The notes below the pieces were generated by a model that worked only from the letters and a program-made list of their open reading frames with translations, searched no databases and was not told where the DNA came from. 64,000 bases of DNA from a virus, in the IMG/VR virus record IMGVR_UViG_3300030117_004164, positions 7,216 through 71,215 of that record, one strand, 5' to 3'. Numbering within the stretch: the stretch's first letter is position 1; each line of letters starts with the position of its first letter. Shown here piece by piece: positions 3,429-37,690 of this stretch. Made by a program: the position numbers and the translations under genes.

Positions 3429-3608
3429 TTAAGCATTATCCGAAATGCTCTCAATAAATTCAATTTCAGGATTTTTTCTCATATATGCATAAATTTGAGC
3501 AGACTGATAAGGACCGTGACCTTCAATCCACGCTAATCCCTTTCTAGGAGAAAGCCAAACAATATGCATTTCTTTTTCTGCTTTGAGTAAATCTTTCCAA
3601 TTAGTCAT
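3429..3608 (-). CDS. Small hypothetical protein, 59 aa (MTNWKDLLKAEKEMH...)
   Basis: Hand-translated, below ORF-track cutoff; AGGTG SD upstream. Confidence 0.65.
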   Translation of the reverse strand: MTNWKDLLKAEKEMHIVWLSPRKGLAWIEGHGPYQSAQIYAYMRKNPEIEFIESISDNA

Positions 3609-4382
3609 TTTAAAACACCTTTTTCAAAATTTGGGCTGTAATTTGTGAGGCACTAGCAAAATTTTTTTTAATTAATTGATTCTATTTCCAGAATAAGAAA
3701 ACATTGATTTGTTTATTTATATTTAAAAGCACGTTTCTATATAAAATGCATCTATTATAGAGTGTTAAATTAATATATAGAATAACGTGTGTTAAACGCT
3801 CCCTTATTTGTATATGCTTCCATAAAGGCAAACTTAGATATAACAGTGTTTTAATTGGATTATTAATACAAATCAGTTTAAGTTAGCCTAAAGTTCTTTC
3901 AACTGCCTTGATGCGTCATGTAGGCATACACATATTAAGTTCGCGGTTTGCCGTGTAAAAATTCTTTCGCTCAAACAGCAATTTAACCAAATAAGCCTAT
4001 TAATTTTATTAAATTAAAAATTTGGTGCAAAGCATATGGTTGTGGTAATAATGAAATTATACCTTGACTGAAAGGAATCCCCAATTGAGGACATCGCGGT
4101 AAATGTCAGATTCTATTCGCATCTTCCTTTATTTACCGACTCTACCATATGATTGGAATTACGGTAGTGTTTAATTAAAATATCTCAATTAATTTAAGTT
4201 AGGGGCGAAAACTAAAGAAAACCTAATGCTATTCGCATAATTGGCACTAGTGCCATTTCTTTAATTTTCTTCCAAACATATGGTTGCGTAGCAATATATG
4301 TGAATAACATATTGTCCTTATGGGGATTAATGGCGACTAAGAAGAACCTGCGAACAGAACCATCCTTAGTCAGCCATACTAC

Positions 4383-4663
4383 CATATGGTAGTGAAGGCG
4401 TGAAATGATAGATTAAAGAAGGAGATTTATCTCCTCTTTATTCTACTTATTAACGTATTACGCGAATAGCGTAATAAAGTGAATGAGAATAGCCTTAAAC
4501 TACCCTTAATGGGAGTAGTTCACTCGTAAAGGTATCTATTCCCTGAAAGCGGATTAAAAGAAATTTCAACCACCAACACTAATGCGGCGGCTGAAAACGC
4601 CAGACGCTTTTAATCCTATGAAACCATTAACGGCTCCTATCATATGGTAATATAACACTTTGG
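4383..4663 (+). ncRNA. Structured non-coding element, copy A (paralog of 6896-7211)
   Basis: Same order of hairpins and motifs as copy B, with compensatory stem changes; strand chosen from the GAATA loop. Confidence 0.6.
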
Positions 4664-4688
4664 GATTATATTGCCCCGAAGGGCGTAA

Positions 4689-4805
4689 TTAAATGTTTTT
4701 TATGTGATAAGCAGGAATTTCTCCGTCTTTTACACATTTGAGACAATAATATGCTCTACCGCCCCACTTCATTTTTTCTCCACAACCAATTGTTTTACAT
4801 TTCAT
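4689..4805 (-). CDS. 38-aa Zn-finger microprotein (MKCKTIGCGEK...YYCLKC)
   Basis: Hand-translated; GGAGA SD, ATGA overlap with upstream gene. Confidence 0.5.
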   Translation of the reverse strand: MKCKTIGCGEKMKWGGRAYYCLKCVKDGEIPAYHIKNI

Positions 4806-4960
4806 TTTTCTTCATCTCCTTTTATTACCCAATCTGCATAATGGTACATTTCATTTGTTATTTCTTCTTTTGCTTCTTTTCGTCGCATCCGTCTATCTTC
4901 GTTTTTAATTTCTGCTCTTCCGACAAATCGCCCTTTTCCTGTTTTCTTTGTTGAACCCAT
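4802..4960 (-). CDS. 52-aa basic microprotein with Arg-rich patch (DRRMRRKEAK)
   Basis: Hand-translated; follows the stop of 4961..5179 directly; GGAGG SD. Confidence 0.55.
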   Translation of the reverse strand: MGSTKKTGKGRFVGRAEIKNEDRRMRRKEAKEEITNEMYHYADWVIKGDEEK

Positions 4961-5179
4961 TTATTCTTCCTCCATTATACATCTTCCACATCTACAAATA
5001 GGCCAATCTTCTTGACCTCTTCCAGCCAGTAGAATAGAATCCCAATACCTATCAATATTTTCAAAATTCTCTTTAGCCCGAACCATTAAATGTGCAACTA
5101 CTTGACGCATTGGTGATTCAGGGTCTTTAGCAATCCAAGGTTCTAGTTTAGCAAATCTTGTATTCCATTTTTCATTCAT
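4961..5179 (-). CDS. Hypothetical protein with C-terminal CxCxxC
   Basis: ORF track. Confidence 0.6.
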   Translation of the reverse strand: MNEKWNTRFAKLEPWIAKDPESPMRQVVAHLMVRAKENFENIDRYWDSILLAGRGQEDWPICRCGRCIMEEE

Positions 5180-5295
5180 TCCTCTTCCTCCAATTCTCCT
5201 GTTTCTGGATTTAGTTTCATTCCAGCAATAGCCATGAGAATAGCAAAAGCGTGTTCCTCATAAGTTAATCTATCAGTTGATTCCGTTGACGTCAT
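5176..5295 (-). CDS. 39-aa microprotein (MTSTESTDRL...LEEEE)
   Basis: Hand-translated; strong GGAGGT SD; ATGA overlap. Confidence 0.55.
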   Translation of the reverse strand: MTSTESTDRLTYEEHAFAILMAIAGMKLNPETGELEEEE

Positions 5296-5430
5296 TAAAA
5301 TTACCTCCTTTTTCAGAAAAAACTGCCCCACAATTAAAACAGCCAAAATGAACAGTGTATTTCATCCCCCAACGTGGATGATAATTCCACTCTCTATCTA
5401 TTTCAACAATAATCTTACCATTACAACAAC

Positions 5431-5643
5431 TCATGCTTTCACTTCCATTTTTCCGATTTCAATTCTTAGTTTCATTTCATCAAATTCCTCTAAAGCCTCT
5501 TGAGTCAATTCCATCAACTCTTCAATCGTATTAGACTTAATAGATAATTCCTTAACAATCAAAATACCATTTCTATCGTGACCGACTTTCAAGGAATATT
5601 TCTTCTCTTGTATTTCTTCTTTTTTCCAAAACATTTTCATCAA
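5431..5643 (-). CDS. Hypothetical protein
   Basis: ORF track. Confidence 0.55.
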   Translation of the reverse strand: MMKMFWKKEEIQEKKYSLKVGHDRNGILIVKELSIKSNTIEELMELTQEALEEFDEMKLRIEIGKMEVKA

Positions 5644-5746
5644 ATCCTGTTATTGACAATTAACAACTCGACCCACGTTATACCTTGGGGCATACAAAGT
5701 ACCACCATATGGTATGGTTTAAACTTTGGGGTAAACAAGGCCCCAA

Positions 5747-6157
5747 TCAAAATAATTGAGAGAAGCACTTTGCACCGATAATTTGTCCTTTATCGTTTCT
5801 AACAGTTTGACCAACCATTAGAAAATCTGTGCGATTGGTGAATGTTTCGCAAACTGCGCGTGAGACAATATACCACACATTATCACGAATAGGTGGCAAT
5901 TCCATACCGTCATCAGGAATTTTCATTTGAACGGATTTAATTGGAATAACAAACTCATCATCAACTGCGGTGCAACTGCTAACGGGTTCATAATAAATAT
6001 CAAAGTGAAATTCACCCAATGGTCCCCATTCTTCAGAAAGCCGAATAGTGTTACCTGATGGTTGAATGGATAGCAAAACTTCACCATTATCGTCTACCAT
6101 GTTAATTTCGTGGGGTGTCATGTTTACAAATGTTTGATTGTCTTCATAGATTGTCAT
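5747..6157 (-). CDS. Conserved viral hypothetical protein (NxTPH...YIVS...VRN-GQIIG type)
   Basis: Motif pattern I recall from phage/archaeal virus proteins; GGAGA SD. Confidence 0.7.
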   Translation of the reverse strand: MTIYEDNQTFVNMTPHEINMVDDNGEVLLSIQPSGNTIRLSEEWGPLGEFHFDIYYEPVSSCTAVDDEFVIPIKSVQMKIPDDGMELPPIRDNVWYIVSRAVCETFTNRTDFLMVGQTVRNDKGQIIGAKCFSQLF

Positions 6158-6254
6158 ATTATCATCTCCTGTAATATAACAGGTTTTATTTTATTTTACT
6201 TATGAGATTGCAAAGCACATCATATGGTTGTAATGAAACTTTGTGAAATTCAAC

Positions 6255-6705
6255 CACAAAAAAAAAGAAAAGGAAATCCGCAGGTTTGCCAATTAGTGCC
6301 TATTGCATGCTCCAATACTTCTAGTGATTATCGGCCGATTTCACTATTCTTTGTCTGATACAAGTTGCTATCAGTTTCTTGACCTAACTGCTTCATTCCC
6401 AAATGGAATAAGAGGTGTCGATGGGATTACGTCGGATAACGCCTTCGCCATAAGTTTTCATCGTATCTCCTAGAATTCTGTTTCTTGAATTATAGTCTTC
6501 GATTACTTCCAACCACCCCACTAGAGCGTTATTTTCTCTAATGTTCCACTGACCGCGCTACACGGTGATAACCGAAGTTATCTTGTTCTCAGCCATTTGG
6601 CCATCAAACGTTCCTGCTAAGGAATCTCGGAGGTGTGCATTATTCCTGATAAGGGAATTATTCTGCCACGACAATGCTGAAGCCGCTAAGCCCCAGACAA
6701 TAAAA
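6255..6705 (-). ncRNA. Candidate ~450-nt structured ncRNA
   Basis: No credible ORF, raised GC, multiple hairpins including GAUAAC(UUCG)GUUAUC at 6567-6582; oligo-T tract at the 3' end (6258-6270). Confidence 0.55.
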
Positions 6706-6895
6706 CAAAAATGACATTCTATTACTTTCGGGGTTGCAAAGCACACCATATGATTGGAGAAAGGTTTTTAGGTCTGCGTATAGCAGAAATACCGTTAAGA
6801 AAACCCTACAATCTCAAAAATAGGGCCAAGGCCTAACCCTTAAATGCCTAGTGTTTTATGAAATAAACAAGTAATTTCAAAAACACACCCATGAC

Positions 6896-7211
6896 CATAT
6901 GGTACGAGGAGTGCTTAAATAAATTTATGATAGTTTTAAGAGGAAGATGAAATCTTCCCTTAATACTGCCGCTAGGTTTGGTATTATGTGCGAATAGCAT
7001 ATAATAAAGAAAACCGGAATAAATTTATTTAATTTAAACGACGAGTTACCCGAAAAAAAATCCTTTAGGACTATTGAAACTAAAGTATTCGCTAAAAGAC
7101 GCGGAAAATAGAATTAATTACCACCTATTAATAATGCGGCGGCAATCAATTCCATATACATTTTCCGCTCGAAAACATTAATGTTCCCCTATCATATGGT
7201 AGCACTTTGGG
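6896..7211 (+). ncRNA. Structured non-coding element, copy B (paralog of 4383-4663)
   Basis: See copy A. Confidence 0.6.
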
Positions 7212-7295
7212 CTAAATAAAGAGTCCCCAAAATCAAATTTCTCAGAAAATTAATTCCAAGAAAAATGATTTTGAGGGTGAGGGCGACAAATAACC

Positions 7296-7865
7296 TCACT
7301 CTTCTTCTTCAACCTCCGTTGAAGTTTCTGCCACGGGCGCGTGAATTACAGGAATATGCCCGTTCATCTCTCCATCCCAATAAATCGTATCATTAGATGA
7401 TTTCTCACCAGATGCAATCTTTAGGGAATTGCGGTAATAGGTGGTCAAACGGGACTTCATGCTCTTCATCAAAGACTCCGCATATTCGTCAGAATCGGCG
7501 TAAGTGCCGCCACCTGATTTACCGTGCTTCCGAACGATTTCACCATAAAGAGGGTCCGTCGCAAAAAACGCAGAAGCCGCCTCTGCGTATTGAGCAGCAA
7601 TCTGGGTTATTGTTTGACTTACTTCTTCCGGCAGGTCTGATTCCCGACCGCGTGAAATTGGGGAGTTCGGAAGCATCGAGAAAAGATTCGTAATATTATT
7701 CCAGAACTTTTTTCTGTTTGCTACATCTTCACGACCTTGGTCAAGGTTCCAGCGGATAACCGCTTCCATATCACCAATGTCGTTGTTCTCCAAATAAAGA
7801 AGAACTCTGCTTTCATTCTTAGACCACTTTGGGTCATCCATACTATAATCAGCCATTTTTTTCAC
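7296..7865 (-). CDS. Hypothetical protein, paralog of 9341..9844
   Basis: Shared SPxxRGxxSxLP, KHxKSGGGxYA, WDG and APVxxxxxxEEE motifs. Confidence 0.8.
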   Translation of the reverse strand: MKKMADYSMDDPKWSKNESRVLLYLENNDIGDMEAVIRWNLDQGREDVANRKKFWNNITNLFSMLPNSPISRGRESDLPEEVSQTITQIAAQYAEAASAFFATDPLYGEIVRKHGKSGGGTYADSDEYAESLMKSMKSRLTTYYRNSLKIASGEKSSNDTIYWDGEMNGHIPVIHAPVAETSTEVEEEE

Positions 7866-8226
7866 TTCCTAAGTTTTTTTTCTCCTGTGAAGGTTCTTTG
7901 TCGCCCTCATAAAAACGATTTTTGTTTTTTTATACCTTGAGGTGACAAAGTACCACCATATGGTTTTAATTATTATGGCGGTGAAACGTAACAAAGGTGA
8001 AGCCTTTGTCGCCATTGTAAGAAAAACCTTAAGGACAATTTATCGAGTTCAATTCCCAATATGCTATTCGCATATCTTCATTTCCACCCGTAAATATTGC
8101 TTACGCAACCATATGGTAATATTATGAACTTTGGGGATAATAACCCCAAATGTCCCCAAGAGCGGCAACGAATCGCCACTCAAGGGGAGGTTGGTAATCA
8201 ATGGGGGTTTCAGGCTCATTTCTGGC

Positions 8227-8628
8227 CTATTCGTGCTTTCCACGCTTGCGACGAATGATTTCATCAATCGTCTGCTTGGCGAAATCAGCCGCATCGACAA
8301 ATGGTGCAAAAATGCCGTTCTTGCCCTTCTGGAACAAATGACGTTCATAATCAAGATAGAACGCCATCAGGTCGTTAGTCATACCTTCTTGGTCATCTGC
8401 CATATCTGCCAATACTGGGTCAATACCCTTCAATTCATCGTAGAGTGCCTCATGGCCACCCTTCTTCAAAATTTCACGAATTGCGCCCCAAACGAATTTC
8501 TCCATCATAGGGGTTACATCCATGTTGACCAATTCGGTCAATTCGGCTTTTTCACTGTCTGTCATATCGCAATCATCACTTTCAAGAACTTCCTTCAAGC
8601 GATTAATGCGCTGTTGGTTTTTGCTCAT
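8227..8628 (-). CDS. Hypothetical acidic helical protein
   Basis: GGAGGT SD; protein-like composition, unlike the overlapping shadow ORFs. Confidence 0.7.
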   Translation of the reverse strand: MSKNQQRINRLKEVLESDDCDMTDSEKAELTELVNMDVTPMMEKFVWGAIREILKKGGHEALYDELKGIDPVLADMADDQEGMTNDLMAFYLDYERHLFQKGKNGIFAPFVDAADFAKQTIDEIIRRKRGKHE

Positions 8629-9340
8629 ACTTTGCTACCTCCAATATAACGAATTTAGGGGGTGTATAGTTGATACTCCCCAAAGTTACAGTATCGTATA
8701 TACACCCATATGGATGGAACATTCCCAATTGGGGGGTCTTTGCTCGCCATAGGCAGTTAATGCTTATTCAGCATTTTCCCAATTGCCATAGCGAGTAAAT
8801 CCCTATCTCCATATGGTTGTAATTAATTCATTTTAATTAATTGTATCTTTCGTGTGGAGGGTGGCTCTTTTGTGCGACTCGCAACTAACCCATATAAACG
8901 ACGTACTGTAAGCCACCAAAGAATATTCATCTGAAGAAATGAGGTCGTTCTTTTAGGTATATTCCAATTGACAATATACCATATACTATACCATATAGTA
9001 TAGAGTATAAATATAGAATATGTAATATTCATATTAGATAAACGCCCACGCATACCATTCTTTAAAATGGATTTAGAAGTAATGTTTAGGGATTTATGAT
9101 ACCTAATTGGCTATGATGAGCAGGTCACGCATGACTTTGCTTAAAATGAAGGCGAACTAGGTTCCGGTTTATTGGTAACATATCCATGAAAATTGCCACA
9201 ATGCAATATATATCATATGTATCACCGTGATACCTATTTCATAGGATTTATATGCTAAACACCTAATGTCAAGTCGCGCCGAGGCGTATGGGCAGTTTAG
9301 AATGATTATGGATGGATAAATTGCTTAAAATAAAACAAAG

Positions 9341-9844
9341 GTGAAAGAAATGGCTATGGAAGGATGGCAAGCACGAACTGAAGAAGTAGCGGAATTTATC
9401 GCAGTAGATGGATTTGACGCACAATTAAGACAAGTTGTTCAGTTCCAAATTAATTTTGGAAATGAAAACACAGACCAGCAAGAGCGAGTTTGGGACTCAA
9501 TTAAGTCCATGATTCGTGGATTAGACGGTAGCCCCGTTCGACGTGGAAAGAAGAGTAATCTTCCTGCAAGCGTAAATGTTGCTATTGCACAGATTACCGG
9601 AGAAGTTGCTTCATTGGCGGCTGATTGGTATGATGGCAATTCGCTATTACAGGCTGTATTGCTGAAACACGCAAAGTCTGGTGGCGGTGCATATGCAAAT
9701 GGTGAAGAGTATGGTGCTTCACTTTCAACAAAGGTTGGTTCACGACTAAAGAAGATGTATTCCGAGGGAACTTGGGATGGAACTACTGATGGTCTTTCAG
9801 CACCAGCACCAGTTGAAACCGCGTCTTATGACGAAGAAGAGTAA
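9341..9844 (+). CDS. Hypothetical protein, paralog of 7296..7865
   Basis: Motif sharing; GGTGA SD. Confidence 0.8.
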   Translation: MKEMAMEGWQARTEEVAEFIAVDGFDAQLRQVVQFQINFGNENTDQQERVWDSIKSMIRGLDGSPVRRGKKSNLPASVNVAIAQITGEVASLAADWYDGNSLLQAVLLKHAKSGGGAYANGEEYGASLSTKVGSRLKKMYSEGTWDGTTDGLSAPAPVETASYDEEE

Positions 9845-10384: not shown

Positions 10385-10888
10385 TTGAAAATGACAAGAA
10401 AACATTGGATAACAAAGAAAGAGATAAAGGAACTGTATGGTTTGAGCGATAATAAAATTGCTCTAATGAAGAAATTGAATTTGGTTAGTACCAAACTAGG
10501 TGTTAATGAAGGTAAAGGGCGTAAGCCGCTATTGTATAAGAAATCAATGGTTAATCTTATAAAAGATATGACACCAATCCAGTTAAATGAATTGGGTGAT
10601 ATTGTTGAAGATACAAAAGAGCAAGTTGAAGATTTTATCAAGAGTGATATTGAAGCAGTTGTTGAAGAAGATTGTAAACATAAATATTCATATGAACAAT
10701 CAGTAAATCATCCATCACATTATAACAAGACTCAACTTGAAGTAATTGATGCGATTGACATTTGGGGTTTGGACTTTAGTGAAGGTAATGTAATTAAATA
10801 CCTTCTACGGGCCAAACACAAGAACAATGCTAGAGAGGATTTAGAAAAGGCTCTTTGGTATGTTCAAAGACTTCTAGATAATCTATGA
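10385..10888 (+). CDS. DUF3310 (SaV-like) domain protein with N-terminal extension
   Basis: VNHPSHY...EVIDAI...GNVIKYLLRAKHK...EDLEKALWY. Confidence 0.8.
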   Translation: MKMTRKHWITKKEIKELYGLSDNKIALMKKLNLVSTKLGVNEGKGRKPLLYKKSMVNLIKDMTPIQLNELGDIVEDTKEQVEDFIKSDIEAVVEEDCKHKYSYEQSVNHPSHYNKTQLEVIDAIDIWGLDFSEGNVIKYLLRAKHKNNAREDLEKALWYVQRLLDNL

Positions 10889-11078: not shown

Positions 11079-11260
11079 GGGTCATTGGCGCAGTTAGGTA
11101 GCGCAACGGGCTTTTATGAGGTTTGCCGAATAATAAGAAGAAAATCTCTTCACAATCGGAATAGTAGTTTTATGGGTTATCTTCTATCCCTTTCATGTTT
11201 CTACGAACTTCTTTCCTCAAAGATACCCGTTGGTCAAGGGTTCGAATCCCTTATGACCCG
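11079..11260 (+). tRNA. tRNA-Lys(UUU) with 108-nt intron at 37/38 (11117-11224)
   Basis: GGGTCAT/ATGACCC acceptor, GCGC D-stem, ACGGG/CCCGT anticodon stem, TTCGAAT T-loop, canonical bulge-helix-bulge. Confidence 0.92.
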
Positions 11261-11583: not shown

Positions 11584-11670
11584 AGCGGGATATCCGAGTA
11601 TGGCCAAAGGAGCAGGACTTAAGATTCTGTGCAAATTGCTTCGTGGGTTCAAATCCCACTCCCGCTACCA
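11584..11670 (+). tRNA. tRNA-Leu(UAA), CCA encoded
   Basis: AGCGGGA/TCCCGCT acceptor, anticodon loop CT-TAA-GA, variable arm, TTCAAAT T-loop, ACCA end. Confidence 0.9.
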
Positions 11671-20663: not shown

Positions 20664-21632
20664 ATGAAAGAAGATATAATTAAATGTTCTGAATGTAATT
20701 CGAGAGAATTAAGTGTAGATGCTAATTCAGGTGAAACTTATTGTGAAGAATGTGGATTAGTATTAGAAGAAAATATATTTGAAGAAACAAGTGCGGGAAG
20801 AGAAAAAGATAGTGACCCTCAAAGTGATAGAACACATAATCCTAATAGAGTAGGATTTACTTTAGGAAGTATGGTTGGAACCACTAATGTAGATGGCAGT
20901 AAAGATAGGTCACAAACGGGTAGAACATTACGAAGATTGAATCAACGTGTGTCTATGAAAAGTCATGAAAAAAATAGAAGCAAAGGGTTTGCATTAGTAA
21001 CTATGTTAGTGAGTGAATTTGTTTCTTCTCCGGCATTTAGGGAACAAGCGGTATGGAATTACAAAAGAATACATGATAATCAAGTGTTAAAGGGTATGTC
21101 TTTAGAGACTAGAGCCGCCGCAGTAGTCTATTATACTTTTAAGGAAAATGGTATCTCTAGGACTATTGAGGAAATTTGTAGAAAAAATATGTCTCACCCT
21201 AGACAAGTAGCAAAATGTGCTAGAAGAATAGCAACTTTCTTTAGGAAACCTTGGATTCTTTCCCAAAAAAATATTGACCAAGATGTTGAAAAGTATTGTT
21301 CACAGTTAGGGGTGAATAGGTTATTTACTACATCAGCAATTAAACTAACATCTTTAATGCACAATATTGCTGAACAAAGATATATGAATGTAAACTCTGG
21401 TTTTACTGCTGCCTGTATTTATTTGACAGGAATTTTACTAACCCCAACTGTTGCCCCTAGAACTCAAATGGAAATTTCTAACGCGTTAAATATTACTGAA
21501 GTTACGCTTAGAACAAATCTAAGAAAGGCACTAAAGATGGTTGATAGAAGAAAAGAAAATTTACCTAATATGAGTTATGATGAATTTATGGAAGGAGTGT
21601 ATAGAATATGTCCAAAGGAAGAAGAAGAGTGA
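20664..21632 (+). CDS. tfb: Transcription factor B (TFIIB family)
   Basis: N-terminal Zn ribbon CSEC...GETYCEECGLVL; two cyclin repeats (AAAVVY, RTIEEI; AACIYL, RTQMEIS...ITEVTLR). Confidence 0.9.
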   Translation: MKEDIIKCSECNSRELSVDANSGETYCEECGLVLEENIFEETSAGREKDSDPQSDRTHNPNRVGFTLGSMVGTTNVDGSKDRSQTGRTLRRLNQRVSMKSHEKNRSKGFALVTMLVSEFVSSPAFREQAVWNYKRIHDNQVLKGMSLETRAAAVVYYTFKENGISRTIEEICRKNMSHPRQVAKCARRIATFFRKPWILSQKNIDQDVEKYCSQLGVNRLFTTSAIKLTSLMHNIAEQRYMNVNSGFTAACIYLTGILLTPTVAPRTQMEISNALNITEVTLRTNLRKALKMVDRRKENLPNMSYDEFMEGVYRICPKEEEE

Positions 21633-23846: not shown

Positions 23847-25393
23847 TGGCAGAAATTTTATTTGATGAAGATGCAAGAAACAAACTTATGGAAGGAATTA
23901 ATTTAGTGGCAAATACAATTAGATGTACTTTAGGTCCACAGGCAAGAACCGTAGTAATTAAGCAAAATGGTAAACCTGTTGTAATTAACGATGGTGTAAC
24001 AATTGCTAAGGCTATCAAATCTGATGATGAATTTGTACAAATGGGTGTAGAATTAATGCAAGCAGTTGCTTCACAAGCCCAAGAAAATAGCGGTGATGGT
24101 ACAACAACTGCTACAATTATGGCACAACAATTATGTTACTATGGTTTAAATGCTGTACAATCTGGAGAAAATCCTGTTACACTAAAGAAACAATTAGATG
24201 CTGATGTTAGAACGGTATTGACTAGGCTAGATAAAATGTCTACTCAAATTCAAGACCGCGAACAATTAGAAAGCGTTGCTACTATCGCCGCAAACAATGA
24301 TTCTAAACTAGGAGAATTAATTGCTGATATTGTAGATAAGGTTGGACGAGATGGTATTATTTCAATTGAAGATGGTCAAAGTTTAGATACTACTTTTGAT
24401 ATTATTGAGGGTATGGAATTAGACTCAGGGTATATGAGTCATCTTATGATTAATAATGAAGAAGGAACGCACTGTGAATTTGAAGATTGTTTGGTTCTTA
24501 TGTCTAATGAGAAAATCAATAACTTTCAGGAATTACTTCCTGCTCTTGAAATCTCAATGGCAGAAAAGAAACCACTATTGATTATGTGTAAAGAACTTGA
24601 AGGGACAGCATTCCCAAATTTATTGGCGAATGTGGCAAACAAGATTATCAATGCTTGTGCTATTAAGACTCCTGATTTTGGAGATGAGCAAATTGAAATT
24701 CTGAAGGATATTCAATCAATGATTGGAGGTACTGTATTCAATGCTGACCTTGGAGATAAGATTTCTGAGGTTAAGTTGGAAGATTTAGGAGTAGTTACCA
24801 AAATTAAAATTGGTCGAAGTAATAGCACATTGATTCACGATGCAACTATTGAACAAAGCGAAAAAATTACTGCTCGCGCTAAAGAATTATCTAACCAAAT
24901 GGAAGCACAAACTAATGAGTGGTTTAAAGAAAAATTACATAAGCGAATAGGTAGACTTTTGGGTGGAGTAGCATTAATTAAAGTTGGTGGTTCAACTGAG
25001 ATTGAAATTCGTGAAACCACAGAAAGATTAGATGATGCCTTAAATGCAACAAGAGCGGCACTTCAAGAAGGAATTGTTGTTGGTGGTGGATTGGCACTTT
25101 GGAATTGTGTTGATGGTGAAATGCTTAGTATGCTAAGGTCGGCTTTGAAATCACCACTTCAACAATTGGCTGAAAATTCTGGACACGATTTAAATTATGC
25201 GAGTTTGTCAATTCGTGATGGCTATGACGCCAAAGAAAATTGTTACACAGATATGTGGGAAGCAGGAATTTTAGACCCCGTTAAAATCACAAAAAGTGCA
25301 TTGGTTACTGCGGCTTCAATTGCTGGATTAGTTTTGACAACTGAAGTTTTAGTTGGTTCTGATGATGAAGAAGAGGTGCAATTTTATGGCTGA
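23843..25393 (+). CDS. groEL: Group I chaperonin GroEL/Cpn60
   Basis: TLGP, NDGVTIAK, GDGTTT, AANND, GGVALIKVG, DALNATRAA, GILDP; lacks the GGM tail. Confidence 0.93.
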   Translation: MMAEILFDEDARNKLMEGINLVANTIRCTLGPQARTVVIKQNGKPVVINDGVTIAKAIKSDDEFVQMGVELMQAVASQAQENSGDGTTTATIMAQQLCYYGLNAVQSGENPVTLKKQLDADVRTVLTRLDKMSTQIQDREQLESVATIAANNDSKLGELIADIVDKVGRDGIISIEDGQSLDTTFDIIEGMELDSGYMSHLMINNEEGTHCEFEDCLVLMSNEKINNFQELLPALEISMAEKKPLLIMCKELEGTAFPNLLANVANKIINACAIKTPDFGDEQIEILKDIQSMIGGTVFNADLGDKISEVKLEDLGVVTKIKIGRSNSTLIHDATIEQSEKITARAKELSNQMEAQTNEWFKEKLHKRIGRLLGGVALIKVGGSTEIEIRETTERLDDALNATRAALQEGIVVGGGLALWNCVDGEMLSMLRSALKSPLQQLAENSGHDLNYASLSIRDGYDAKENCYTDMWEAGILDPVKITKSALVTAASIAGLVLTTEVLVGSDDEEEVQFYG

Positions 25394-25628
25394 TGATTTT
25401 GATGTGAGAGGAAGAATTCCAAGAACAGCAACAGAAGAAATAAAAGTGAAAACAGGAAAGTATTGGAATATTCCTATTGTGGATATTCGTTGGCACAAAG
25501 ATGACAAGCCAACAAGAAAAGGTATTAGAATTAACATGAATGAATTAAACCATTTGGTAAATATATTAGGGAGGATTAGAGATGGTGAGCGAACAAGAAA
25601 TAGTGAGAACAATCAAGAAAACGAATAA
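25386..25628 (+). CDS. PC4/YdbC-like ssDNA-binding protein
   Basis: VDIRWH..DKPTRKGIRI...EL matches the PC4 fold signature. Confidence 0.75.
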   Translation: MADDFDVRGRIPRTATEEIKVKTGKYWNIPIVDIRWHKDDKPTRKGIRINMNELNHLVNILGRIRDGERTRNSENNQENE

Positions 25629-34421: not shown

Positions 34422-34723
34422 TGGGAAAAGTAAAAGAAGTCTATATGATGTATTATCAAGGTAATATGTCAATAGATAAAATAGCAAAAGTGTTAAATAT
34501 CGAGAAACAATCGGTTGCTAACTTAGTACATAGTATTTATTTTGGAGATGAAGAAGAATGAGATATGGTAGAATTGTAACATTTAAAATTGAATCAAATA
34601 ATCTGGGAGATTTAAAGGCTTTTATTTCAGGCCTAAAAGGATTTGCAGATGGTAATGCGATTGTAAGTAGAACTAATATTGCATATGTAACTGAAGAACC
34701 TTGTGTTGAAAGGAGAGATTGAA

Positions 34724-36391
34724 ATGATTATTAGTTATACGGATGATGGAAATATTCATGTTAGGTATAGAGAATCGAATAACTTGAGAGTAGAAAGAGT
34801 GTATAATGATTTTAAACCTTATTTTTTCATTGATGAGAAGGCTAGGGAAATTGATTTCTATAAAATTAATATGAAAGTTAATGGTGAAAATGTATCACTA
34901 GAATTACCCTATGCTTATGAACATGGTGATTGGAAAAACCTTCTAGGAAAACCTTTGAAGAAAGTAATTGTTCAGAAACATTCTGATATTAGAACCGCCA
35001 AGAAATCATGGAATAGAACATATGAAGCAGATGTACCTTTTCATTATAGATATTGTGTTGACAAACTAGAAAAATTACATGAATATGATTTACGTAAATG
35101 GTATTGGGATATGGAATGGCTTAATGGCGACCCTGATGAGGGAGATGCGATTACTGCTATTGTAGTATATGATAACTATGATGATAAGTACACCGTTTAT
35201 ACTTGGAACCCTTATCTTAATGAAGATAAATTTCCTGAATATAATAACAATAGTGTAATTTTTACTTTTCATTCTGAATTTGAAATGCTTAGGGGATTTA
35301 TGAGAAAGATTCAGGATTGTGACCCTGATATGCTCATATCATGGTTCGGTTCAAAATTCGATTTGCCTAAGTTAATTCATAGGCTTCATTATAGAGGCAT
35401 TGACCCAAGAGGACTTTCACCATATAATGAAGTAAAGGGTGTATATGCTAACAAGATAACTGATGCAGTTGATAATTATTCTCCGGTAGCACAACCTATA
35501 CGGGGGCGTATTACCTTGAATTTAGACTTAGCATTTGAGCGTCAATGGAATGATTCTCAACGTGGGACTCTACCTTCATTAGCACTTGATTATGCGGCAG
35601 AGGTAGTATTGGGTGCAAAGAAACTAGTATCAGAAAAATTTCCAGATAAGAATGAATTCTTTAGAAGGGGTTGGTTAGAAGATACTGAAAGGTATTTAGA
35701 ATATGCTAGAGTAGACGTAGAATTACTTCATCGTATAGATGATGAGATGGGACTATCTGAAGGTATTTTATCACTACAAAGGTTACTAGTTGCACCTTTT
35801 GATGCTTGTTTTTATGCCTCTAACATGGGGAGTATATACTTTATGCGTAATGCTTGGTGGAAGGCCCCAACAGGTGATAAATCAAAAGATAGAGAAGATT
35901 ATGATGGTGCATTGATTTACGACCCATTGAGTGAAGAAACAAATGGATTACATATAGGGGTGGCCGCTTTTGATTATGCCGGACTATACCCATCAATGAT
36001 GTTAGCCCGTAACATTTCATGGGAAACATTGACCCATTCAAAGACAGAATTTGCTGTAAATTTGAAAACTCCGCGTGACTTTTCTCCTGTTGTAGATAAG
36101 GATATGGTGTATTTCAAAACAGATAAACTAGGACTATTACCACAATCCGTCTTAGAGTTGAAAACATTAAGAGATGAATACAAACGCCGAAGAAATGAGG
36201 CAGAGGATAAAAGAGAATATACTAAGTGGGAAAATAGTCAAATGGCTGTAAAAAGATTAATGGCTTCATTTTATGGAATTATTGCGTATCAAGGTTTTGG
36301 TTGGGCTAATGTAACTTTAGCGGCGGCTATTACTGCAAGCGCAAGAGAAGCGATTAGAGAAGCCGCATTTAAAGTGAGGGAGTTAGAATGA
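34724..36391 (+). CDS. polB: Family B DNA polymerase, N-terminal part (3'-5' exonuclease and motifs A, B)
   Basis: WDME, FDLP, YARVD, FDYAGLYPS, KRLMASFYG. Confidence 0.92.
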   Translation: MIISYTDDGNIHVRYRESNNLRVERVYNDFKPYFFIDEKAREIDFYKINMKVNGENVSLELPYAYEHGDWKNLLGKPLKKVIVQKHSDIRTAKKSWNRTYEADVPFHYRYCVDKLEKLHEYDLRKWYWDMEWLNGDPDEGDAITAIVVYDNYDDKYTVYTWNPYLNEDKFPEYNNNSVIFTFHSEFEMLRGFMRKIQDCDPDMLISWFGSKFDLPKLIHRLHYRGIDPRGLSPYNEVKGVYANKITDAVDNYSPVAQPIRGRITLNLDLAFERQWNDSQRGTLPSLALDYAAEVVLGAKKLVSEKFPDKNEFFRRGWLEDTERYLEYARVDVELLHRIDDEMGLSEGILSLQRLLVAPFDACFYASNMGSIYFMRNAWWKAPTGDKSKDREDYDGALIYDPLSEETNGLHIGVAAFDYAGLYPSMMLARNISWETLTHSKTEFAVNLKTPRDFSPVVDKDMVYFKTDKLGLLPQSVLELKTLRDEYKRRRNEAEDKREYTKWENSQMAVKRLMASFYGIIAYQGFGWANVTLAAAITASAREAIREAAFKVRELE

Positions 36392-36654: not shown

Positions 36655-36902
36655 GATTAGAAGGAAGAAAGTGTAGTTTTAAAACTTGTAAAACAAGAAT
36701 ACTATCTAACACAGTATTTTTAGGTAATGAGCCTAAATGGATGGTTAAAGGTACAATGAAAGGGTATTGTATGGAATGTTCTTTGAGAGAATATTCTAAT
36801 CTTATTCCAGTAGTAAATGCTCATCCTGATGATAAGTTTGAATTTTGGGCTATGATAAATGGAGAACTTACCCCTTTAGTACCAAAGGAGGAAGAAGAAT
36901 GA
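36651..36902 (+). CDS. Small Zn-binding protein inserted between PolB halves
   Basis: CSFKTC...CMEC; ATGA coupling. Confidence 0.6.
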   Translation: MRLEGRKCSFKTCKTRILSNTVFLGNEPKWMVKGTMKGYCMECSLREYSNLIPVVNAHPDDKFEFWAMINGELTPLVPKEEEE

Positions 36903-37690
36903 AAGTAGTTTATGCACATACAGATTCAATCTATGTTCCTATTGAGAACGTAGAAAAAGCAAAAGAAATTTGCACAACGTTGAACAATCATATGCGAGAA
37001 CATTTTCCTAATCTTTTGGGATTAGAAACTCATCCTGTAACTTTAGAGTTTGAAAAGTATTATGAAGGTTTAGGAGTTGGTGTGAAGAAGAATAGAAATG
37101 CTGGTTATATATCTTGGAAAGATGGTAAGTATTTAGATGAACACCAATTTGTTGTTACAGGTTTCTCTACTAAAAGAATTAGTGAGAATAAGATTGGAAA
37201 AGAATTTCAAAGTGATTTGCTTAAGATGTGGGCAGGTCAAAAAACTAAATACGATATTGTTGAGTTTTGTAAACAAAGGTATAACGATGTTAAACACGGT
37301 AGAGTAACCTTAGAAGATATTGTTAAAAGAGGTAGAGTTAGAAGGGAACTTGAAGAATATAAATCTATTGCTGGTGGAATTGCTGGGGTTTGTTATTATA
37401 ATGAACACATTAATCCTGATGACCCAATAGATGATTCATTTTTCTATATTGAATGTAATATTGTCAACGGACCAAGTAGAATGATTTTTCCTAATGGTGC
37501 AGAAAGACCTGTAAAATATGTATCAGTGAAAGAAATGAAAGAGTTTAATGAAGATTTTGAAATAGATTGGGGGGCATATGCTCAAAAATCTATTGTACAA
37601 AAAGCCAAACCCATTTTCCTAGCGATGGGTTGGGATATGAAAGAATTTATTGTTGACGAAAATCAACAAAGTTTAGGGAAGTGGTTATAA
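36899..37690 (+). CDS. polB: Family B DNA polymerase, C-terminal part (motif C, thumb)
   Basis: VVYAHTDSIY, LEFEK, KKNRNAG; terminal PIP box QQSLGKWL. Confidence 0.88.
   Translation: MKVVYAHTDSIYVPIENVEKAKEICTTLNNHMREHFPNLLGLETHPVTLEFEKYYEGLGVGVKKNRNAGYISWKDGKYLDEHQFVVTGFSTKRISENKIGKEFQSDLLKMWAGQKTKYDIVEFCKQRYNDVKHGRVTLEDIVKRGRVRRELEEYKSIAGGIAGVCYYNEHINPDDPIDDSFFYIECNIVNGPSRMIFPNGAERPVKYVSVKEMKEFNEDFEIDWGAYAQKSIVQKAKPIFLAMGWDMKEFIVDENQQSLGKWL

Follow-up and report, generated by a model that had tools for sequence, protein, structure and literature searches.

A ten-base-pair palindrome punctuates a shuffled cassette array in magrovirus-like archaeal viruses

The uncultivated virus record IMGVR_UViG_3300030117_004164 (71,215 bases) contains a compact array of genes and non-coding units in which every unit boundary is marked by the 10 bp palindrome ACCATATGGT. 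The DNA analysed here (the window, 64,000 nucleotides in length) corresponds to bases 7216-71215 of that record, and all positions given are those of the window; the array occupies a region near its left end and contains 14 boundary sites separating 13 units, ranging in length from 100 to 1065 nt (Table 1). Comparison with related viral contigs shows that the palindrome is also the common crossover point at which units have changed orientation in situ, shifted position, and passed from one diverged relative to another. The array is a real and conserved feature, a punctuation for modular shuffling in an uncultivated and abundant group of archaeal viruses.

The hexamer CATATG at the center of the palindrome occurs 42 times in the window, compared with a mean of 22.1 (standard deviation 4.8, maximum 32) in 100 dinucleotide-preserving shuffles, and 14 of these copies lie within 4033-8815, where the shuffles predict ~1.7 in 4.8 kbp. 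At each of the 14 a C precedes the core or a G follows it, and seven have both, forming the octamer CCATATGG. These seven are the only octamers in the complete 71,215-base record, all lying inside the array (4382-8816), and a reversed-pattern control yields none. Extended to the full 10 bp motif, there are 72 matches to ACCATATGGT in the window with two or fewer mismatches, against 32.7 expected; all five perfect copies are array boundaries, as are eight of the eleven copies with a single mismatch, with a ninth located just outside at 8990. Mismatches at the boundary sites are restricted to the outer positions, and the central hexamer is perfect at all 14. None of the sites falls within the open reading frames (ORFs) taken as genes (4704-5643, 5747-6157, 7296-7865 and 8227-8628, all on the minus strand).

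An original prediction made from the sequence of the window had listed the 14 CATATG positions, mostly as CCATATG or CATATGG, against a rough expectation of one or two in 4.8 kbp, and had placed every one of them between genes. It had also pointed to a 16 bp palindrome at 4378-4393, to an inverted copy linking 4277 with 8094-8115, and to brackets around the gene cassettes of the form CATATGG..ACTTTG on the left and CAAAG..CATATG on the right. The positions are exact, the expectation agrees with the shuffles, the palindrome and the brackets are present, and the inverted copy is 95% identical over 22 nt; the supposition that the motif would exceed shuffled controls and be concentrated in the array is borne out by the counts above.

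Related viral contigs were gathered using both the 189-amino acid (aa) protein encoded by cassette G3 of the array and DNA patterns. In the four nearest records the octamers are concentrated in a single stretch of 2.5-5 kbp (8 of 10, 10 of 10, 12 of 13, and 5 of 5 respectively), and relatives in which the 189-aa protein is ~32% identical have 13 octamers in 7.2 kbp and 16 in 20.5 kbp. The pattern ACCATATGGT-N(120-150)-ACCATATGGT identifies 32 stretches, which come from 30 different viral contigs between 15 and 96 kbp in length, and runs of at least three octamers are present in 35 of the 38 sequences examined (the window and 37 loci). Among 262 unique octamer sites the base directly outside the octamer is A or T in 86%, and from +/-6 outwards no base exceeds 50%; conservation thus ends at +/-5, and the conserved object is a sharply bounded 10 bp palindrome. 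Applied to bacterial and archaeal genomes (596 Gb), this two-site pattern gives 22 stretches, near the ~17 estimated by chance, including no array and two unrelated tandem repeats, and a search with the 597-aa flanking protein recovered no related loci. Contig G001 (locus L010) starts at a CCATATGG site (position 3), its assembly having broken inside the array, and this break may reflect structural heterogeneity in the population.

The sites are strongly associated with the ends of similarity between contigs. Within arrays, 126 of 340 ends (37%) of high-scoring segment pairs between contigs lie within 10 nt of a site center, compared with 5.9% of random positions (maximum 11.8% in 500 draws). 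The window and G001 share unit M6 (96-97% identity), parts of cassette G1 (87-93%), and cassette G2 together with unit M5 (90%), and the rest of the two genomes is mostly without nucleotide alignment; that the units are far more alike than their carriers suggests recent exchange. M6 precedes G1 in G001 and follows M5 in the window, with the joint inside the shared CATATGGTA, and the block shared with G001 is inverted with respect to the flanking genes, the flanks matching in the opposite orientation at 70-90%. Variant half-sites travel with their unit, such that the M4/M7 family ends in ...TATCAT in four of four cases and M6 begins with ATGAT... in both genomes, which places the exchange within the central hexamer. 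Assembly error is an unlikely source of these rearrangements, since the shared repeats are at most 22 bp.

Inversions are evident in genomes that are otherwise aligned with the window; at the protein level, G002 and G004 are both collinear with it for more than 50 kbp. The order of the 70-aa gene, the 189-aa gene, and the gene flanking the array on the right is kept in all four genomes compared, and the orientations of the first two relative to the flanking gene are (-,-) in the window, (+,+) in both G002 and G004, and (+,-) in G003. The right-flanking gene (9341-9844, plus strand) is itself a distant paralogue of the 189-aa gene (29-33% identity) lying outside of the palindrome-bounded units, and this tally was therefore restricted to orthologues with at least 65% identity, available in the four genomes. 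G001 has two 70-aa genes on opposite strands. These flips are evolutionary evidence and are silent on switching within a population. The proposal that units are acquired, shuffled or inverted by recombination at the palindromes, as might be seen in related magrovirus contigs, is thus supported as to pattern, in that whole units differ, move and invert with breakpoints in the CATATG core and shared units are 87-96% alike; a dedicated enzyme would be a further assumption, no known recombinase family being represented (see below).

The protein-coding cassettes have a common organization. Two hallmark families occur inside the arrays, the 189-aa family at 22 loci and the 70-aa family at 19, with a few loci derived from the same contigs. 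In all 18 members of the 189-aa family analysed, a site is positioned 84-139 nt before the ATG and is followed 4-10 nt later by [AG]CTTTG, and in 12 of these there is then a strict TATA-like hexamer, whose median distance to the ATG is 69 nt. Beyond the stop codon a site is found within 200 nt in 17 of the 18, and CAAAG[TC] lies 2-12 nt before the site in 16. Of the 627 unique inward-reading flanks from all loci, 121 have [AG]CTTTG at 4-10 nt inward of the site (the reversed motif and the complement are each found twice), with 88 different sequences between the site and the motif. These flanks fold with a mean z of -1.13 relative to arm-shuffled controls, and of 122 folded, 84 have a helix surrounding an unpaired motif core and 105 have the G's of the site in base pairs; a typical cassette end is GGTAACA-[..ACTTTG..]-TGTTACC-TTATG. 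The two ends are mirror images, in that reading inwards from either side there is a site and then a hairpin with ACTTTG in the loop, and the TATA-like box is present on the 5' side only. At junctions between a cassette and a short unit the ACTTTG motif is present solely on the cassette side, and it is thus a property of the cassette, not of the junction. Terminator-like hairpins are located upstream of the next site in the protein cassettes.

Thirteen of the 18 members of the 189-aa family have a predicted duplex of at least 13 bp (13-23 bp) between the 5' and 3' untranslated regions (UTRs) enclosing the ORF, formed by paired, covarying sequences that differ between genomes. One arm starts 34-65 nt before the ATG, at about the transcript start expected from the TATA-like box, and the other starts 0-25 nt past the stop codon's first base. 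This duplex is better than the best of 100 shuffles in eight of the 18 members and not in the other ten. The 18 members are that of the window and 17 in related cassettes of loci L005-L042. A clamp of the predicted 5' end to the sequence following the stop codon could stabilize or close the messenger RNA (mRNA); we know of no description of such a clamp in archaeal viruses, the literature not having been searched for one.

Judging from these predicted elements, the protein cassettes look autonomous. Their ORFs are ORFans, with a Pfam match for one of 30 representatives of array ORF clusters. The product of an array cassette in a related contig (L018:678-983, minus strand) is a member of the Kyanoviridae Gp96 family (E 4e-16), a cyanophage ORF family without assigned function that is here found in an archaeal virus cassette.

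The short non-coding units are rich in hairpins, in keeping with their original description as such. For 90 short-unit interiors sampled from arrays of the window and its relatives, with z-scores calculated from mononucleotide shuffles, the mean lower z is -2.28 and 52% are below -2, compared with -0.94 and 10% for 60 coding 140-mers; the two strands of the short units score alike. Units M4 and M7 are paralogues, and locus L005 contains two further copies that are mutually inverted and have one site in common. Stems in this family covary, e.g. GGATTAAAAG/CTTTTAATCC versus GCGGAAAAT/ATTTTCCGC. A hairpin with the loop G-C/T-GAATA-G/A-C recurs in 21 array units of the window and the two nearest relatives, and 18 copies of the GYGAATARC hairpin with a stem of at least 3 bp use nine different 4-nt stem words. 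It is off-center, with median distances of ~40 and ~126 nt to the two sites, and this gives the units a polarity; the units are found in both orientations, and counts of G.T (7) and A.C (6) reveal no bias in the strand of these hairpins. More distant relatives have other short motifs in place of GYGAATARC.

Most of the 170 unique short units are singletons and the largest BLAST family has six members, such that the families are too small for a meaningful covariation test. Rfam 15 has no match in the interval 3600-9400 at the gathering score or with E values up to 5, and the array contains no transfer RNAs (tRNAs). A stem starting at the GGT of the site is found at 52.6% of unit ends, compared with 44% in shuffles (maximum 48%) and 48% for random GGT; this is marginal, and the GGT...ACC hairpin is therefore confined to ends of the ACTTTG type. 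In flanks lacking ACTTTG no further motif at a fixed offset was found, just a 2-3-fold excess of TAATA/ATAAT near the site.

The explanation that we tentatively prefer is a boundary element with a palindromic core that is bound by a dimeric protein, with crossovers generated by general recombination machinery, similar to the promoter early stem-loop (PeSL) elements of T4-type phages. The region would be a hyperplastic array of accessory cassettes in a magrovirus-like tailed archaeal virus, made up of self-contained units, with the protein cassettes bringing an archaeal-type TATA-like box, a clamped mRNA, terminator-like hairpins, and mirror-image ACTTTG end hairpins. A unit can sit in either orientation because ACCATATGGT is symmetric. 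The palindrome would lie in the spacer between the terminator of one unit and the promoter of the next, and would be kept invariant as a boundary mark for a sequence-specific dimeric protein, of viral or host origin, that acts as an operator or a transcription roadblock. Crossovers would take place during co-infection using the viral ligase, the Cas4-like and ERCC4 nucleases, and a possible AAA_24 annealing protein, and presumably involve no recombinase of a known family.

PeSLs are described as promoter plus stem-loop motifs in hyperplastic regions, where cassettes of ORFans are exchanged and mini-circles form (Arbiol et al. 2010, PMC2839356; Comeau et al. 2014, PMC4122927). The resemblances are that short conserved intergenic elements, combining a promoter and a stem-loop that are predicted ones in the arrays, are found in a hyperplastic ORFan-rich region, that they flank units gained, lost or replaced between relatives, and that each unit would have its own promoter and terminator. 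Here, the octamers of five virus records are each in one stretch of 2.5-5 kbp apart from three strays, differences between relatives break in the motif, and there is a predicted composite of promoter and stem-loop (a TATA-like box in 12 of 18 hallmark cassettes and a hairpin in 84 of 122 flanks), with a box that is archaeal in type and not sigma-70. PeSLs, in contrast, are directional sigma-70 promoters conserved over ~100 bp, for which insertions, deletions, replacements and mini-circles are reported; in the arrays the only universal element is a strict 10 bp palindrome, the cassettes have mirror-image ends, inversions of units occur as well, and non-coding units are numerous. PMC3950731 describes a conserved motif that precedes ORFs of HGTV-1, a haloarchaeal virus (Sencilo et al. 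2013), and that was compared by the authors of that study with PeSLs, with proposed roles in both transcription and shuffling; the brief description makes no mention of a fixed palindrome at unit ends, of non-coding units, or of inversions.

Several considerations weigh against this explanation. Ten base pairs is very short for homology-driven recombination, and PeSL conservation is reported to span ~100 bp (PMC2839356). Repeated inversion in place without a change of order would be more usual for a site-specific invertase than for general recombination, and the presence of ACTTTG at both ends of a cassette whatever its neighbor looks like the terminal inverted repeats of a mobile unit. The dimeric protein is hypothetical, and the two hallmark proteins have no recognizable DNA-binding or catalytic fold. 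The placement of the site in an untranscribed spacer is read from the arrangement of predicted signals, and the idea of an operator before each promoter is without support for the short units, since a crude test that looks for an A/T-rich box close to one end and, on the same strand, a T-tract close to the opposite end, counted where found on one strand only, scores 16 units, at the level of shuffles (mean 12.0, maximum 19 in 100).

A serious rival follows close behind, namely that ACCATATGGT is the core of a dedicated site-specific system of a new kind, acted upon by a recombinase or a rare-cutting nuclease of viral or host origin; we regard this as possible, if somewhat doubtful. It ranks close because the core is short and perfect, the cassette ends are mirror images, the in-place flips are repeated, and the motif is absent elsewhere. 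Breakage and rejoining would take place within the central CATATG, possibly by cutting and religation with the viral ATP-dependent ligase, and the symmetric core would enable any two sites to invert or excise the intervening DNA in the manner of a shufflon or an integron, with the ACTTTG-loop hairpins as accessory recognition elements comparable to folded attC sites. The invariance of the hexamer at 14 of 14 boundaries, with mismatches only in outer positions, and the retention of variant half-sites by their units (M4/M7 in four of four, M6 in two of two) fit an exchange at the site center, and the mirror-image ends with a hairpin-loop motif at variable spacing fit recognition of a folded strand. 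Three orientation states occur in four genomes with order kept, and the site is unchanged at ~30% protein identity while its surroundings change. Arrays are confined to these viruses, with none in 596 Gb of cellular genomes; two conserved array-encoded proteins (at 22 and 19 loci) have no recognized fold; and one contig, G001, starts at a site.

Known recombinase sites are 26-34 bp, considerably longer than ACCATATGGT, and there are no conserved arms beyond the 10 bp. The short units lack the ACTTTG element and, given that the compared genomes are diverged, a few rare illegitimate events could suffice. No enzyme of a known recombinase or transposase family emerged from searches of five records, of which two are at least 93% complete: models for tyrosine recombinases (PF00589), serine recombinases (PF00239) and the Y1 (HUH) transposase (PF01797) each match in 0 of 5, and the positive controls worked for all three (14 of 14 for PF00589). 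Pfam scans of 78 window ORFs, of the 30 array ORF cluster representatives, and of 23 ORFs near the G004 arrays and in the first 7.2 kbp of G000 identified no recombinase, transposase or homing nuclease, and the array ORFs have no Pfam nuclease or recombinase domain. The original remark that no recombinase could be recognized in the window agrees with these searches.

The models of the two hallmark proteins are confident, but comparisons of structure and sequence gave nothing informative. The 189-aa family has no Pfam or PHROG match, no Foldseek match with E up to 0.001, and no hit in a profile search of the PDB; its AlphaFold2 model has a predicted local distance difference test score (pLDDT) of 84.7, and the best VIA-align Z of 7.1, over ~60 residues of a three-helix bundle, is within the background of the tool. 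A faint atlas hint of Myb similarity (scores of 0.80 or less) was discarded, with permissive Pfam searches of 18 members giving four unrelated families, each in one or two members. There are five invariant residues in the 189-aa family, none of them a typical catalytic residue. The 70-aa model (pLDDT 79.9) is a beta-hairpin plus a long helix, with nothing from Foldseek at E up to 0.001 and no usable atlas match. That ACCATATGGT is specifically the core of a previously unrecognized system for inversion and cassette exchange in archaeal viruses, without a known recombinase family, we consider rather unlikely; its agents are perhaps the 189-aa or 70-aa proteins, or a cut-and-religate nuclease together with the viral ligase. 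If a dedicated enzyme does act on the site it would represent a new recombination system with a compact 10 bp target, and autonomous accessory genes together with dozens of fast-evolving modules resembling small RNAs would be constantly rearranged and exchanged between co-infecting viruses.

Shufflons, with other multiple-inversion systems, and integrons are the known recombinase-based systems that are closest in form. In the R64 shufflon, the tyrosine recombinase Rci acts at 19 bp asymmetric inverted sfx sites to switch the C-terminus of a single protein. As in the arrays, segments bounded by several short repeats undergo inversion one at a time or as groups without the region itself moving, and inversion in place is evident here as evolutionary evidence; the arrays differ in having a symmetric 10 bp site, autonomous units, and no recombinase gene, with no PF00589 or PF00239 invertase in any of the five records. 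Integrons have an integrase (IntI), an attI site and a common promoter (Pc), and their cassettes are usually promoterless and in one orientation, separated by attC sites of 57-141 bp with conserved structure and poorly conserved sequence. Both are arrays of exchangeable ORFan cassettes split by imperfect palindromes with inverse core motifs folding as hairpins, although IntI, attI, Pc, promoterless cassettes in one orientation, and the attC features are all lacking here. An integron was rejected on these grounds, with PF00589 in 0 of 5 records and cassettes having their own TATA-like box on either strand.

A third possibility, that the sites are purely regulatory, is improbable; the original alternative of operators for one viral dimeric regulator is taken up within the explanation preferred above. 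If purely regulatory, the sites would be operators or roadblocks for one dimeric regulator switching the accessory region, with no role in recombination, and the perfect 10 bp palindrome with sharp edges, its fixed location upstream of the TATA-like box in every one of the 18 hallmark cassettes, a virus-encoded transcription factor B (TFB), and the weakly ArsR-like protein adjoining the array are all in accord with this. The stoperators of Cluster A mycobacteriophages are also short intergenic sites in many copies, bound by one repressor that blocks transcription, but these are asymmetric 13 bp sites distributed genome-wide, oriented with transcription, and not points of unit exchange; here the site is symmetric, 10 bp long, in one array, and at the points of exchange. 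The same units are found with other neighbors and in other orientations with joints inside the site, and non-coding units are 92-97% identical between viruses that otherwise hardly align. The sites are therefore where exchange happened, whatever else they do. In the ArsR-like protein (10385-10888, plus strand) DUF3310 is fused to a region with a weak match to a winged helix (E 6e-5, under the cut-off), and this protein is a candidate DNA-binding protein for the site; a DUF3310 homologue is at the same place in G004.

It is very improbable that the sites act at the RNA level, with a long precursor being cut at ACCAUAUGGU or at a two-copy helix to release mRNAs and small RNAs, after the manner of RNase III sites in T7 or bulge-helix-bulge sites in archaea. 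The site is self-complementary, the units are strongly folded, and the host has tRNA splicing, to judge from a viral tRNA with a 109-nt intron at 37/38. However, units and protein cassettes are on both strands within one array, downstream of the site the protein cassettes bring a TATA-like box of their own, and two copies pair as a perfect 10 bp helix without the bulges that define a bulge-helix-bulge. The Pfam scans of window ORFs include no RNase III domain, and the hairpin counts (7 G.T and 6 A.C) have no strand bias. The early suggestion that units are cut out of a transcript is accordingly left unsupported, with units on either strand, and with TATA-like boxes and predicted terminator-like hairpins upstream of the next site.

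Least probable of all are miniature transposons with terminal inverted repeats TGGT...ACCA at TA targets, giving CCA-TA-TGG at each joint, for although ATGGT is at the start and ACCAT at the end of every unit and there are paralogous units, the units abut with a single shared core and no DNA between them or duplication, which independent insertions would not give, no transposase was found, no copies are present outside the arrays elsewhere in the genomes, and there are neither multi-copy families nor recent bursts (170 unique units, a largest family of six, mostly singletons). An IS200/IS605 or REP/RAYT element was also rejected, with PF01797 in 0 of 5 records and end hairpins that are mirror images on opposite strands. 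So too was a CRISPR array, which would have identical repeats of 24-48 bp, uniformly long spacers, and cas genes, and which had already been set aside at the outset: the repeat is 10 bp, units are 100-1065 nt and contain genes, and the sole Cas-related Pfam match, a Cas4-like nuclease, is 29 kbp from the array.

The accessory genes of magroviruses have so far been unstudied and the viruses are uncultivated, and ACCATATGGT offers a means to locate the hyperplastic region in any such contig, to split it into its natural units, and to show how these viruses trade genes. If the preferred PeSL-like explanation is right, the idea of regulatory punctuation that doubles as recombination points would reach archaeal viruses, with the twist that a symmetric core frees the orientation of the units. 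Through the arrays a sizeable and hitherto unexplored collection of structured non-coding units also comes to light, as does a conserved mRNA design whose 5' end is predicted to pair with the sequence after the stop. Term searches of PMC5434244 and PMC11706807 and a wider full-text literature search found no array-like feature, supplements lying outside the search, and blastn of the array region against phage records gave no match. The components of the array in the window are listed in Table 1.

Table 1. Boundary sites, units and associated features of the cassette array. Mismatches are relative to ACCATATGGT.
Feature	Coordinates	Strand	Description
Array	4033..8815		Whole cassette array, 14 boundary sites and 13 units
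Boundary site	4031..4040		AGCATATGGT, 1 mismatch; CAAAG before it at 4028-4032
Unit M1	4039..4145		Short non-coding; degenerate GCGAATAG hairpin copy on minus strand
Boundary site	4144..4153		ACCATATGAT, 1 mismatch
Unit M2	4152..4276		Short non-coding; hairpin loop GCGAATAGC at 4228-4236, minus strand
Boundary site	4275..4284		AACATATGGT, 1 mismatch
Unit M3	4283..4382		Short non-coding; hairpin GTGAATAAC at 4300-4308; first 22 nt are inverted copy of 8094-8115
Boundary site	4381..4390		ACCATATGGT, perfect; center of 16 bp palindrome 4378-4393
Unit M4	4389..4640		260-nt structured module, paralogue of M7; GCGAATAGC hairpin at 4462-4470
Boundary site	4639..4648		ATCATATGGT; variant left half is part of M4
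Cassette G1	4647..5705	-	Small-ORF operon within 4704-5643, including hallmark 70-aa gene 5434-5643; ACTTTG at 4657-4662
Boundary site	5704..5713		Perfect; G1/G2 joint; flanked by CAAAGT 5695-5700 and ACTTTG 5723-5728
Cassette G2	5712..6220	-	136-aa ORF 5747-6157 (phrog_30542, phrog_21731; function unassigned)
Boundary site	6219..6228		ATCATATGGT; flanked by CAAAGC 6211-6216 and ACTTTG 6238-6243
Unit M5	6227..6746		526 nt; cassette-type ACTTTG/CAAAG ends; 92.6% identical to G001
Boundary site	6745..6754		ACCATATGAT; CAAAGC 6737-6742 before it; variant right half is part of M6, likewise in G001
Unit M6	6753..6895		Short non-coding; 96-97% identical in G001, with other neighbors there
Boundary site	6894..6903		Perfect
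Unit M7	6902..7192		300-nt structured module, paralogue of M4; GCGAATAGC hairpin at 6990-6998
Boundary site	7191..7200		ATCATATGGT, followed by ACTTTG 7204-7209; variant left half is part of M7
Cassette G3	7199..7956	-	Hallmark 189-aa gene 7296-7865; TATA-like box 7925-7934 (minus strand TATAAAAAAA)
3' helix arm	7278..7296	-	3' arm of predicted helix around 189-aa ORF, beginning at stop codon
5' helix arm	7891..7909	-	5' UTR arm of predicted 189-aa ORF helix (19 bp, one mismatch)
Boundary site	7955..7964		Perfect; CAAAGT 7946-7951 before it
Unit M8	7963..8109		Short non-coding; hairpin loop GCGAATAGC at 8063-8071, minus strand
Boundary site	8108..8117		Perfect; followed by ACTTTG 8128-8133
Cassette G4	8116..8706	-	133-aa ORF 8227-8628; family seen in 4 loci
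Boundary site	8705..8714		CCCATATGGA, 2 mismatches; CAAAGT 8681-8686 before it
Unit M9	8713..8809		Short non-coding
Boundary site	8808..8817		TCCATATGGT, 1 mismatch; last site

Between the last site and the first rightward gene is an AT-rich non-coding stretch (8815-9340) that includes degenerate site-like repeats, with ACCATATACT at 8978, ACCATATAGT at 8990, and a 12-nt tandem unit, TATACCATATAC, at 8975-9002. This stretch may be a decayed end of the array, a divergent promoter region, or an origin.

The predicted gene content of the window fits that of magroviruses infecting Marine Group II archaea (Poseidoniales), and appears similar to group B, in agreement with the initial guess that the DNA derives from a magrovirus. 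Pfam matches to replication functions include a family B DNA polymerase (PolB, in two pieces), replication factor C (RFC), the archaeal primase small subunit, and an ATP-dependent DNA ligase, and further matches include a ribonucleotide reductase, a thermosome-like Cpn60/TCP-1 chaperonin, a tail tube protein, an ERCC4+HhH nuclease, and the Cas4-like PD-(D/E)XK nuclease. According to published abstracts, magroviruses are abundant and infect an archaeal group that is among the most abundant in the surface ocean. Group B is reported to code for tRNA-Leu and tRNA-Arg (PMC5434244).

Two tRNA genes were identified in the window using Rfam and ARAGORN. One is an uninterrupted tRNA-Leu(TAA) at 11584-11670, and the other, at 11079-11260 (plus strand), carries an extra 109 nt following anticodon-loop position 37, where archaeal tRNA introns are canonically found. 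The latter scores 53 bits with Rfam and was missed by ARAGORN; its anticodon is UUU by reading of the alignment, and not that of Arg. The window also encodes a TFIIB/TFB homologue with a zinc ribbon and a cyclin repeat (20664-21632, plus strand) and a PC4-like protein (25353-25625), which together suggest a virus-directed reprogramming of host transcription initiation. The two PolB pieces are ORFs at 34703-36391 and 36845-37690 (plus strand), ~450 nt apart with two small ORFs between them, and this split is common to G002 and G004.

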